In this document: in pieces, positions 53,957 through 56,764 of the stretch
How positions within the stretch are numbered: position 1 is the first letter of the stretch
Layout of the letters: each line of letters starts with the position of its first letter
Assembly: GCA_021324255.1 (NCBI GenBank)
Contig: JAJPJL010000126.1
Location: forward strand, 29,855-93,854
Source of the DNA: Bacillota bacterium
GTDB taxonomy: Bacteria > Sysuimicrobiota > Sysuimicrobiia > Sysuimicrobiales > Segetimicrobiaceae
Reading direction: 5' to 3'
Length of the DNA stretch: 64,000 nucleotides
Position numbers and translations under genes: made by a program
The notes under the pieces: model-generated
Databases searched by the model: none
Seen by the model: only the letters and a program-made list of their open reading frames with translations
Told to the model about the DNA's origin: nothing

Positions 53957-54537
53957 GTCCGCCCCGCCTGCACGTCGATACGAGTACCGGGGCCCCCGGT
54001 TCGCCACGCGGCATGAAGAAACCCTCAGTCACTGGCCTGCATGTTCGCCGATCCCCGTATTAGGTACTCATAGTCGGACCCTATAAGGCGGCTCCTCACA
54101 GCGTCCCGGAGCGCCGTGTGCGGGACCGCCGCGGCCCGGCGCACAAGTTGATCCGCTCAAGCCGCCGTCGCGCCTCACGCCTTGGCCGGCGGGGCGGCTG
54201 TCTGGGCCTGACCCAGCGTGGCGAACAGGCCGGCACGCTTCTTCTCTCGTAGACTCCGGGTCCCAGGCTGGAACCGTAAGGGGGTCACCTCGACAACAGA
54301 AGGGAGGCGGCGTTCGCTCGTCCGGCCCCAGCGTCGCGTTGCTCCGCGCGTCGCTTCGCTCCGTTCACGACCACCGATCGCGGCGTTCACCATGGAGCGA
54401 AACGAGTGTTCATGATGAGCGAAACCAGCATCCCGTGCGAGGCGGACTGCTTGCTCCCGAAATTGCGGCGGATACTAACGGTGTTTGCCTGGGAGCTATT
54501 GGGCCTCAGCAAGACCTAGGACCATCGCGCTCCTGAG

Positions 54538-54583
54538 TTGACAGATAATTGCACGCATGATATTGTTTTACCGGGCGGTAAAA
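54538..54583 (+). promoter_or_regulatory. Island promoter TTGACA-17-TATTGT immediately followed by a perfect inverted repeat TTTTACCG-gg-CGGTAAAA (candidate autoregulatory operator)
   Basis: -35 at 54538-54543, -10 at 54561-54566 and the IR at 54566-54583, 32 nt upstream of the ATG at 54615. Confidence 0.55.
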
Positions 54584-54614
54584 TATATCAATGTAGACAA
54601 CTTTCCAAGAGACC

Positions 54615-55676
54615 ATGACAACACCAACCATCCAACAAGTGGAGAAGCTTCTCCCGTCTCTCATCCCGGGATTCAGAATCTCAAGCATGAGAAGGCAACC
54701 AAGACCCAAGTCTGGGGACATTCGACCGGACTTCCTCCTAAAGGGATACCTGAAGGGCCGCCCGGTGACCTTCGCAGTCGAAGTGAAGAGCGTTGGCGAA
54801 CCTCGTTATGTTCGACAAGCAATGAACGAGCTACAGGCGTTCAAACGGGAGAATCGAGATGTCTATCCACTCCTCATCGTACCGTACATGAGCCCGAACG
54901 CCCAGCTCTTGGCAAAGGCGGAAGGCATTGGTTTCTTGGACTTGGCCGGAAATGCGTGGCTGGACCTGGAACAAGCGTACGTCGAACGAATCGGACGGCA
55001 TCCAGAACGCGTCCCCGCACGACCGATTCGTCGAGTGTTTGCTCCTGTTTCTTCGCGAGTCATCCGCGCTCTTCTGGAGTCCCCGAAACAGACGTGGACA
55101 TTAAGCACGTTGGCTGCCGAAGCTACCGTCGGCTTGCCCCTAGCGTCCAGGGTGGTGCGGAGGCTTGCCGAGGATCGCTGGATATCCTTGAAACGCGTTG
55201 GCCGGAGAGCAGAAATCAATATTACAACGCCAGGCGAACTGCTCGAAGCGTGGGCGAGCGAATATTCTTTCCTCACAACGAACTCGGTCTCACGGTTGTA
55301 CAGCTTTGAGTCAGACCCAGGACGCCTGATGAAACAAATAGCGTCGGTTGCCAACCGAGAGCGTAAGAAGTATGCGTTTACTCTGGCGGCTGGTGCGACC
55401 CTGATAGCTCCGGCAGCGAGGATCTCGGATGTCGCACTCTACATTGAAGGAGATCTTGAGGCTTGGAAGAGCTTGCTTGACCTGAGGCCAGCGGAGACCG
55501 GTGGCAACGTCTTGATAGCTGAGCCTTTCGATGCGGGTGTCTTCTATCGAATTCAGACGCCAGCAGACCAGTTTTGGGTCGTTGGCAACGTTCAACTGTA
55601 TCTGGACCTCGTTTCGTGGAAAGGCAGAGGTGAGGAACAGGCGGAGGCGTTGCGCCGACAGAAACTAGGTTATTAA
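54615..55676 (+). CDS. AbiEi-like putative antitoxin/regulator with an unusual architecture: N-terminal PD-(D/E)xK nuclease-like motif, central winged-helix, C-terminal domain
   Basis: RPDFLL-x17-EVK matches the PD-x(n)-(D/E)-x-K motif, and IVPYMSPNAQLLAKAEGIGFLD resembles the Mrr-cat C-terminal strand. Residues about 150-205 look like a winged helix. The stop lies 3 nt before the AbiEii gene. About 50% GC. Confidence 0.55.
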   Translation: MTTPTIQQVEKLLPSLIPGFRISSMRRQPRPKSGDIRPDFLLKGYLKGRPVTFAVEVKSVGEPRYVRQAMNELQAFKRENRDVYPLLIVPYMSPNAQLLAKAEGIGFLDLAGNAWLDLEQAYVERIGRHPERVPARPIRRVFAPVSSRVIRALLESPKQTWTLSTLAAEATVGLPLASRVVRRLAEDRWISLKRVGRRAEINITTPGELLEAWASEYSFLTTNSVSRLYSFESDPGRLMKQIASVANRERKKYAFTLAAGATLIAPAARISDVALYIEGDLEAWKSLLDLRPAETGGNVLIAEPFDAGVFYRIQTPADQFWVVGNVQLYLDLVSWKGRGEEQAEALRRQKLGY

Positions 55677-55679
55677 CAC

Positions 55680-56540
55680 ATGGCCACCGACCGCGGCATT
55701 GGCCATTTTGCATCCGACACCGTCGGCGCATCTCAGTCGGTACTTCTCGAACTGGCGACAACGTTGAGAGTTTATAGAGACGCACTCGTTCTTGTGGGAG
55801 GGTGGGTCCCCTACTTTCTCATCCGAAAGTACTGGGGATCCCGCGCGCATCACGTGGGATCAATTGACATCGACTTGGCCGTGGACTTTCGACAGGTCTC
55901 CGAGGCAGAATATCGAGGCATCGTAGCGCTTCTTCGAGAGCGCGGCTACAGCCCGAAGGAAGACGTTAGCATGCCGTTTGAATTCATCCGCGCGGTACCC
56001 AGGGACGGCGGGCTTGGGCCAGTCGAAATTGCTGTTGACTTCTTATCCGGGGAATATGGCGGAACCGGCCGAGGTCATCGACATCAGCGAGCCGGCGATT
56101 TGCTCGCGCGAAAAGCGCGCGGCTGCGATGTCGTCTTCGACCACCGGTGGCTTCTCAGTCTCGAGGGTCGTCTGCCACTTGGTGCAGAGGCCCAGTGCGA
56201 CTTGTGGGTTGCTGACCTGGTCGGTTGTTTGACCACGAAAGGCATCGCAATGGCGTCGCGCTACAAGGAGAAAGACGCTTACGACATCTATATGGTCATA
56301 TCCAATCACCCACGGGGCCCGAGAGGTGCAGCGGAGGAAGTCGCGCCCAGCCTGAGCCATCCGCTCGTGACGGAGGGACTTGCTGGAATCCGCCAGCACT
56401 TTGCTTCTCCACAGAGAACTGGTCCCCAGTGGGTTGCGGACTTCTACGGGGAGACCGCGGGCGAAGCAAGAGATCGCCGAGTGACCGACGCCTACATGCG
56501 CGTTTCGGAGTTTCTGCGTGTTCTGGGTTTGGACAAGTAG
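55680..56540 (+). CDS. Nucleotidyltransferase of the AbiEii/AbiGii (DUF1814) toxin family
   Basis: Motif I LVLVGGWVPYF...GSIDIDLAV and motif III KGIAMASRYKEKDAYDIYMVI. About 286 aa. Confidence 0.8.
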   Translation: MATDRGIGHFASDTVGASQSVLLELATTLRVYRDALVLVGGWVPYFLIRKYWGSRAHHVGSIDIDLAVDFRQVSEAEYRGIVALLRERGYSPKEDVSMPFEFIRAVPRDGGLGPVEIAVDFLSGEYGGTGRGHRHQRAGDLLARKARGCDVVFDHRWLLSLEGRLPLGAEAQCDLWVADLVGCLTTKGIAMASRYKEKDAYDIYMVISNHPRGPRGAAEEVAPSLSHPLVTEGLAGIRQHFASPQRTGPQWVADFYGETAGEARDRRVTDAYMRVSEFLRVLGLDK

Positions 56541-56630
56541 AAACCAGCCTCCAGATTGGTTCGGGTCGGTTTCGGGGAGCGAGGATAGCCTCTTCTACAG
56601 CGAGAAACCCCCGGAACCCCCCTACGTTCA

Positions 56631-56660
56631 ATTGACAGTGAAAACGATGGGCGGCTATAC
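56631..56660 (+). promoter_or_regulatory. suf operon promoter TTGACA-18-TATACT
   Basis: Hexamers at 56631-56636 and 56655-56660, about 105 nt upstream of the sufC start. Confidence 0.5.
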
Positions 56661-56699
56661 TGAATCATGACTAAGTTAGTCGACAATATCAGCTTCGCG

Positions 56700-56715
56700 T
56701 CGCGGACGTGTCCGC
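56700..56715 (+). promoter_or_regulatory. Inverted repeat CGCGGAC-gt-GTCCGCG between the suf promoter and sufC (candidate operator for an Fe-S regulator)
   Basis: Perfect 7-bp arms read from the sequence. Confidence 0.35.
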
Positions 56716-56764
56716 GCGAGCGCGCCGCCGCGCGGCGGCGCGAGACGCCGGGACGGAGGGGTGA

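Follow-up and report, generated by a model that had tools for sequence, protein, structure and literature searches.

A two-gene cassette was characterized in a 64,000-nucleotide (nt) stretch of a Bacillota bacterium genome (assembly GCA_021324255.1, contig JAJPJL010000126.1, positions 29,855 to 93,854), referred to here as the window. The cassette is probably a horizontally acquired unit of about 2.07 kb of the toxin-antitoxin (TA) or abortive-infection (Abi) type. It was placed in the COG4861(AbiEi_2)-DUF1814 class, the MenA2-MenT2 branch of the AbiE/MenAT systems. The first gene is located at 54,615 to 55,676 on the plus strand and encodes an AbiEi_2/COG4861 antitoxin-regulator of 353 amino acids (aa). 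The second gene is located at 55,680 to 56,540 on the plus strand and encodes a DUF1814/MenT-type nucleotidyltransferase (NTase) of 286 aa. Both open reading frames (ORFs) and the 3-nt spacer between them (TAA-cac-ATG) agreed with a preliminary description of the locus. The pair belongs to a catalogued, widespread and experimentally untouched family.

The product of the upstream gene is full-length and falls within COG4861/PF09952 (AbiEi_2) as an ordinary member, and its three-domain layout is normal for that family. Residues 203 to 349 matched Pfam PF09952 with 33.5 bits against a gathering score of 21, so the last 150 residues, which had been described as unassigned, are the family-defining domain. 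PF09952 was also matched by 49 of 52 aligned homologues. A database search returned at least 224 homologues. The 120 listed were colinear with the query at 90 to 100% coverage, nearly all of about 345 aa (343 to 360 aa), and several carried the source name "type IV toxin-antitoxin system AbiEi family antitoxin". When one genome per species was scanned, 147 relatives were found, none above 43% identity. The phyla represented include Nitrospirota, Methylomirabilota/Rokubacteria, Chloroflexota, Actinomycetota, Acidobacteriota and Planctomycetota, and the archaeal groups include Bathyarchaeota, Altiarchaeota and Asgard archaea. PF09952 has been equated with COG4861 in defence-gene tables (PMC7251935). 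The association of COG4861 with DUF1814 (COG4849) was reported by Dy et al. in 2014 with a STRING score of 99% (PMC3985639), and the Mycobacterium tuberculosis pair Rv0837c-Rv0836c (MenA2-MenT2) has been assigned to it (PMC3968373, PMC7450476). Given the number of homologues and the published pairing, the earlier proposal of a new architecture is thus not correct.

The suggestion that the protein is not a canonical AbiEi was borne out, as the winged helix-turn-helix (wHTH) is internal and no COG5340-type family (AbiEi_1/3/4) matched it at E <= 1. These families were also absent among the 25 Pfam families most matched by 52 members (E <= 0.5). PF09952 proteins lacking the N-terminal domain were sought with residues 140 to 353 in a word-indexed search of limited sensitivity, which gave 14 matches, all but one of at least 303 aa. 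An AlphaFold2 (AF2) model built on 52 sequences had a mean predicted local distance difference test (pLDDT) score of 88.8.

The pair is conserved as a unit across bacteria and archaea. Among the 80 genome loci, nearly every one with room for a toxin homologue had it between -4 and about 80 nt 3' of the antitoxin gene. Loci L013, L027, L067 and L072 had room downstream and no toxin homologue. The same arrangement was present in loci L001 to L005.

The downstream protein is, as judged from its motifs and model, a predicted NTase of DUF1814/MenT fold with a complete active site. Its motif positions are G40-G41, S61, D63-x-D65, D120, K187 and K198-D199-x2-D202. Residues G40, G41, D63, D65, K187, K198 and D202 were invariant across the family, D120 was conserved at 90 to 100% and S61 at 90% or more. 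The motifs GG...GSIDIDL and K...R..KDAYDIY, on which the preliminary description had based its assignment, were present and invariant or nearly so. The AF2 model had a pLDDT of 90.1 and a predicted template modeling score of 0.90. Its best Foldseek neighbors in the PDB were MenT1 (8an4, E 1.6e-4), JHP933 (4o8s, E 4.5e-4) and MenT3/TglT (6y5u, E 1.3e-3), with TM scores of 0.4 to 0.55. The auto-phosphorylated position is T39 in MenT1, where D41 follows two residues on, and S78 in MenT3 (PMC11375011). S61 of the window protein precedes the first catalytic aspartate, D63, by two residues (S61-I-D63), giving the spacing of T39/D41 in MenT1, and it corresponds to MenT3 S78. Among relatives from other genomes PF08843 (AbiEii) was matched by 26 of 42 (E <= 0.01) and PF12281 by 13 of 42. 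The 1,781 database homologues of the toxin (P0121-P0240 among them) were mostly labeled "hypothetical" and had no precomputed Pfam match.

The N-terminal domain of the antitoxin (residues about 1 to 130; 54,615 to 55,004, plus strand) was modeled as a PD-(D/E)xK nuclease fold. Its predicted secondary structure is alpha(3-16), beta(20-27), beta(40-46), beta(49-57), alpha(63-79) and beta(83-89), followed by a further helix and strand, which gives an alpha-beta-beta-beta-alpha-beta core. D39 is at the start of beta2 and E56-V-K58 at the end of beta3. The nuclease motif noted previously was therefore found on a beta2/beta3 hairpin, but with the spacing PD-x16-EVK and not x17. The top Foldseek matches of the domain in the PDB were the catalytic domains of EndoMS/NucS (E 1e-4 to 7e-4, about 112 columns), and the closest folds also include Mrr-like AF1548 and Can2. 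The antitoxin matched no nuclease Pfam family significantly. Weak restriction-endonuclease-fold matches were seen in a few relatives (NucS_C 0.064, Tox-REase-9 0.011, HSDR_N 0.038). The preliminary description had considered that the protein might be an ordinary AbiEi devoid of a nuclease-fold N-domain. It is an ordinary AbiEi_2 protein, but the whole family has the nuclease fold.

Conservation was counted over 77 antitoxin sequences from different species. D39 was conserved at 94%, E56 at 87% and K58 at 81% (with a further 12% R). The D-E-K triad was complete in 59 sequences (77%), was D-E-R in four and was disrupted in 14 (about 18%). Retention of the PD-ExK residues among homologues is thus common but not complete. 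P63, D109, G112 and N113, all outside the triad, were conserved at 97 to 100%. D109-x2-G112-N113 was kept in 76 of the 77, the remaining member having D-G-D, and more distant relatives showed the same pattern of triad loss and loop retention. GEPR and D-x2-G-N are the family-specific motifs of the domain. As an observation in its own right, the D109-L-A-G112-N113 loop and P63 are more conserved than the putative triad and persist in members that have lost it. Retention of the loop in those members points to a universally required function of the N-domain.

An exhaustive phmmer search with residues 1 to 135 against 1.84 billion representatives gave 622 clusters. The match was always N-terminal in proteins of about 345 to 370 aa, or was located in split or truncated genes. 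Occurrence of the domain in other architectures was rejected by this search, and its confinement to the N-terminus of COG4861 proteins indicates that it is ancestral in and specific to the family. In one split case (L171:3001-4911) an N-domain ORF of 149 aa is followed by a wHTH and AbiEi_2 ORF of 179 aa, the toxin gene and a type I restriction-modification (R-M) HsdM gene. Either the nuclease-fold domain is naturally split off here, or a frameshift or an error of assembly has separated the two ORFs. The PD-(D/E)xK fold of the N-domain is absent from family descriptions in the searchable literature and is reported here as new. The domain probably provides DNA binding, DNA sensing and/or dimerization. 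It may also cleave DNA in the approximately 77% of members with the D-E-K triad, including the present protein.

The central wHTH is located at 55,047 to 55,229 on the plus strand (residues about 145 to 205), and R148 and R151 within it are invariant. Its position, given correctly in the preliminary description, was supported by Pfam, AF2 and structural matches. Weak Pfam matches to MarR_2, HTH_Crp_2 and DUF6293_C were found in this region, together with many MarR, ArsR and Fur structural matches. Family members matched HTH_IclR, HTH_11 and MarR_2.

The C-terminal AbiEi_2 domain at 55,221 to 55,673 on the plus strand (residues about 203 to 353) is the predicted antitoxicity domain. The order of its elements, strand(253-256), G260-A261, helix, strand(273-277), helix, strand(299-303) and D306, reproduces the polbeta-NTase core. 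The adenylyltransferase structural neighbors ANT(2''), LnuA and 5UVD are common to the antitoxin and canonical AbiEi. These matches were assigned to the C-terminal domain by size and topology and not from the alignments, because no other domain is large enough and the C-terminal one has the right topology. Residues about 206 to 353 are thus probably a degenerate polbeta-NTase-like fold. Positions 272 and 274, equivalent to the DxD motif, were not conserved in the 77-sequence alignment, and the domain is therefore probably not a transferase. Homology of the C-terminal domain with the partner toxin was rejected at the sequence level (hhalign of the family profiles, probability 0.4%). Given a winged helix followed by an NTase-like domain, residues about 140 to 353 resemble a canonical AbiEi core behind an extra nuclease-fold domain. 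No description of residues 140 to 353 as AbiEi-like was found in the searchable literature, and this point is new here.

The cassette has its own predicted promoter and operator, as had been noted. A sigma70-like promoter, TTGACA-17 nt-(TG)TATTGT, is located at 54,538 to 54,566 on the plus strand, with 10 of 12 consensus matches and an extended -10. Four promoter-like sites were found against 0.7 expected, and the sigma70-like promoter is conserved in the L170 copy of the cassette, in an unrelated context. The unstranded palindromic operator TTTTACCG-gg-CGGTAAAA at 54,566 to 54,583 is the core of a palindrome of about 33 nt (54,558 to 54,590) and overlaps the -10/+1 region. The core, TTTTACCGggCGGTAAAA, had no other match in the 64 kb, with 0.01 expected.

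Of 78 genome loci in the set L006 to L085, 47 had the motif TTTYACC(N4-6)GGTRAAA in the interval from -200 to +60 relative to the antitoxin start, compared to eight matches in the remaining 679 kb of these loci. When shuffled controls were used for comparison, the best inverted repeat upstream of the gene reached their 95th percentile or higher in 70% of loci. The motif was found upstream of AbiEi_2 genes in Actinomycetota, Chloroflexota, Nitrospirota, Acidobacteriota and Asgard archaea. The palindrome is accordingly a family trait, as judged from these upstream regions. Operators conserved so broadly are unusual for TA systems. A cross-phylum operator of this kind was not found in the searchable literature and is new here. 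Two copies about 70 nt apart were seen in L012, L035, L039 and L077.

Base composition sets the cassette apart from its surroundings. The 2-kb segment from 54,501 has the lowest GC content in the 64 kb (0.565 compared to a mean of 0.710, standard deviation 0.039). The antitoxin and toxin genes have GC contents of 0.55 and 0.59, respectively, with 0.71 for the window. GC content at third codon positions (GC3) is 0.59 and 0.63, compared to 0.82 to 0.94 in six neighboring genes. An AbiE-like two-gene module of atypical composition, as originally proposed, is thus present. The fall in GC from about 70 to about 50% over about 2.7 kb given in the preliminary description was correct as to the low-GC segment but not as to its depth, since 0.50 is reached solely in the approximately 200 nt preceding the antitoxin ATG, the promoter region. 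The bounds given for the island (53,957 to 56,764) were too wide on the left because 54,008 to 54,400 is host-like (GC 0.68). The atypical segment runs from about 54,400/54,530 to 56,600 (about 2.1 kb).

Copies of the cassette were found in three different genomic contexts. An 84%-identical copy (L170), located after a branched-chain amino-acid ABC transporter, shares roughly the 85 nt that precede the ATG, promoter and palindrome included, and similarity stops at about 54,530. In a 92%-identical copy with other neighbors (L173) downstream similarity ends at about 56,600. In the third context (L174/L175) F420 genes are downstream of the cassette. From the similarity limits with L170 and L173 the mobile unit was therefore placed at about 54,530 to 56,600 on the plus strand (about 2.07 kb), comprising the promoter/operator, the antitoxin gene, the toxin gene and a 3' tail of about 60 nt. 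Among relatives the GC content of the module was below that of its flanks in 25 of 31 loci.

No recombinase, tRNA gene or evident flanking repeat accompanies the cassette in the window. No empty site was found among 80 metagenome loci with the flanking PEMT methyltransferase. These loci were 53 to 76% identical, and none was syntenic with the suf operon or contained the module. Acquisition rests instead on composition and on close copies in other contexts, and the cassette appears self-contained and horizontally acquired. Some relatives adjoin integrase, recombinase, R-M, DISARM, BREX or TOTE genes, but these are a minority of neighbors. Of 150 flanking ORFs in relatives only a minority were defence or mobile genes, and an enrichment in defence islands was set aside on this count, which has no background for statistics. 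Phage-integrase-family genes were observed a few kb from the module in L004/L005 (about 3 kb upstream) and L006:281-1543, and serine recombinases and an IS66 transposase were observed near the module in other relatives.

By analogy with AbiE/MenAT models (PMC3985639, PMC7450476, PMC11375011, bioRxiv 10.64898/2026.01.19.700257) the toxin would add nucleotides to tRNA 3' ends and so block translation. The 353-aa protein would act as both antitoxin and autorepressor. Its winged helix, probably as a dimer, would bind TTTYACC(N4-6)GGTRAAA and repress the operon. The NTase-like C-terminal domain may neutralize the toxin by binding it and/or by triggering auto-phosphorylation of S61, in a type VII-like manner.

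Several points weigh against a TA assignment of this kind. The toxin passed PF08843 only marginally (23.2 bits, gathering score 22.5), had no match among PADLOC models or in NCBIfam, and a profile search of its family against PDB sequences found nothing. The antitoxin had only weak PADLOC matches in the wHTH region (E >= 0.016) and none in NCBIfam, and its family profile likewise found nothing among PDB sequences. No characterized COG4861 antitoxin was found in the searchable literature. The MenA2 assignment is that of the literature. MenT2, the sole tested toxin assigned to the COG4861-DUF1814 branch, was non-toxic in Mycobacterium smegmatis and Escherichia coli (PMC7450476). Finally, 14 of 77 antitoxins have a disrupted triad while D109-x2-G112-N113 is essentially universal, and catalysis is therefore not what selection has kept in every N-domain.

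The most uncertain step concerns the N-domain, whose mixed conservation does not decide between a dimer or clamp and a nuclease or sensor. It is possible, if doubtful, that the domain is a non-catalytic dimerization module or DNA clamp exapted from a nuclease and that the cassette is otherwise a plain AbiE/MenAT pair. The operator, a two-fold symmetric palindrome of 18 to 19 bp kept across phyla, calls for a dimer, whereas canonical AbiEi, which has no N-domain, is a monomer that binds two separate repeats (PMC3985639, PMC7319586). The location of the best-kept residues outside the triad and the repeated loss of the triad point the same way. Yet retention of all three catalytic residues by 77% of members at 35 to 45% identity is above expectation for a structural relic. 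That intact triad, present here as D39/E56/K58, could instead mark a bifunctional antitoxin-effector, in which the domain is an active DNase on invading or structure-specific DNA or on its own palindrome, serving as a second effector or a DNA-sensing trigger. The nearest folds are bona fide nucleases (NucS/EndoMS, Mrr-like AF1548 and Can2), and some relatives are located in defence islands. The domain also shares a chain with a sequence-specific winged helix, as is the case in many type IV restriction enzymes. It would however be hazardous for a constantly expressed autorepressor to bring an active DNase to its own promoter, no nuclease Pfam family was matched significantly, and in the 18% or so of members without the triad the domain and its D-x2-G-N loop stay. 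An active DNase was on balance considered unlikely. A step further, the COG4861 antitoxin could be a nuclease-bearing sensor/effector whose N-domain recognizes or cleaves phage DNA ends or structures, or the palindrome, and thereby releases or activates the toxin. This was judged quite unlikely; if true, the sensing of DNA would be linked directly to the poisoning of tRNA, which is not described for any AbiE/MenAT system.

A function outside toxicity was thought very unlikely for the pair. The downstream protein would here be a regulated NTase that modifies nucleic acids or small molecules in a non-toxic role, or part of a signaling pair resembling the cyclic oligonucleotide-based antiphage signaling system (CBASS), its product being sensed by the NTase-like C-terminal domain, which would switch on the nuclease domain. 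The reported lack of toxicity of MenT2 (PMC7450476) fits such a role, as do the labeling of most toxin homologues as "hypothetical" with no precomputed Pfam match and the mostly ordinary genes next to the module. The toxin nevertheless has the full set of DUF1814 motifs together with the MenT-type phospho-acceptor, and the structures closest to it in fold are those of proven toxins. A strict bicistron, an autoregulatory palindrome of its own, patchy spread across phyla and atypical GC are hallmarks of TA and Abi systems, and the C-terminal domain is degenerate at its DxD-equivalent positions and shows no sign of ligand binding. A horizontally acquired COG4861-DUF1814 pair of the TA or Abi type is thus the reading retained.

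The cassette is flanked on the left by a divergent PEMT/ICMT-type methyltransferase gene (53,495 to 53,956/54,007, minus strand) and on the right by sufC-sufB-sufD. Between the methyltransferase gene and the cassette is an apparently non-coding, GC-rich (0.68) region of about 520 nt (54,008 to 54,530). It contains several imperfect direct and inverted repeats and short ORFs only (35 to 72 aa called in other assemblies), and it had no Rfam match. It may be a remnant or a leader region. Upstream of sufC a near-consensus promoter, TTGACA-18-TATACT (11 of 12), was observed at 56,632 to 56,661. A palindrome of very high GC content, CGCGCCGCCGCGCGGCGGCGCG, comes after it in the sufC leader, at about 56,716 to 56,745. 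The palindrome is possibly a regulator site or an RNA hairpin for suf control. No Rfam match was found between 53,400 and 57,000 at E <= 1, and no tRNA genes were found in the window.

Taken alone, the locus is one more accessory TA/Abi cassette of ordinary type. Its analysis sharpens the view of a large AbiE/MenAT branch, which has about 1,800 toxin matches and, when antitoxins are clustered at 50% identity, upwards of about 600 clusters. Every COG4861 antitoxin examined has a restriction-endonuclease-fold domain ahead of an AbiEi-like core, most keep the triad, and one palindromic operator is recognizable from Actinomycetota to Asgard archaea. The results bear on MenA2-MenT2-type systems, including that of M. 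tuberculosis. As the pair has no PADLOC or NCBIfam matches, standard defence and TA annotation pipelines probably miss the whole branch. Pfam, PADLOC and NCBIfam cover the C-terminal 145 residues or so, or nothing, which suggests that annotation could be improved.

Compared to known systems, the N-domain is only 13 to 22% identical to the C-terminal domain of NucS/EndoMS and to Mrr-like/AF1548 domains, with no significant profile match. The partner domains of those proteins are different, and GEPR, D-x2-G-N and partial triad loss are features of the COG4861 side. Type VII TA systems (HepT-MntA; TglT/MenT3-TakA/MenA3) have in common with the cassette a probable NTase-like fold in the antitoxin and a phospho-acceptor serine in the toxin, and neutralization by antitoxin-promoted covalent modification of the toxin may be shared. 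In contrast to their enzyme-like antitoxins, the NTase-like domain of the window antitoxin has no conserved DxD and is unlikely to be a transferase.

Canonical AbiE (AbiEi-AbiEii of Streptococcus agalactiae and Lactococcus lactis), MenA3-MenT3 and MenA4-MenT4 (COG5340-COG2253) share the antitoxin-then-toxin bicistron, the DUF1814 toxin motifs and phospho-acceptor position, and inverted repeats over the promoter. They also share a winged helix followed by a C-terminal domain, the probable counterpart of the adenylyltransferase neighbors named above. Canonical AbiEi is a two-domain protein of about 200 to 300 aa with the winged helix first, whereas in the window antitoxin the wHTH is internal, behind a PD-(D/E)xK domain of about 130 aa. 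Monomers of canonical AbiEi bind 23-bp repeats, while the window cassette has a single compact palindrome. The window antitoxin has no COG5340-type Pfam match and the pair no PADLOC AbiE match. With the COG4861-COG4849/DUF1814 pair, of which MenA2-MenT2 is an example, no defining difference was found, the sequence relation to Rv0837c itself not having been checked. A PF09952 match above threshold, a putative regulator of about 350 aa that is larger than the toxin, a DUF1814-type NTase directly downstream and a wide distribution in bacteria and archaea are common to both.

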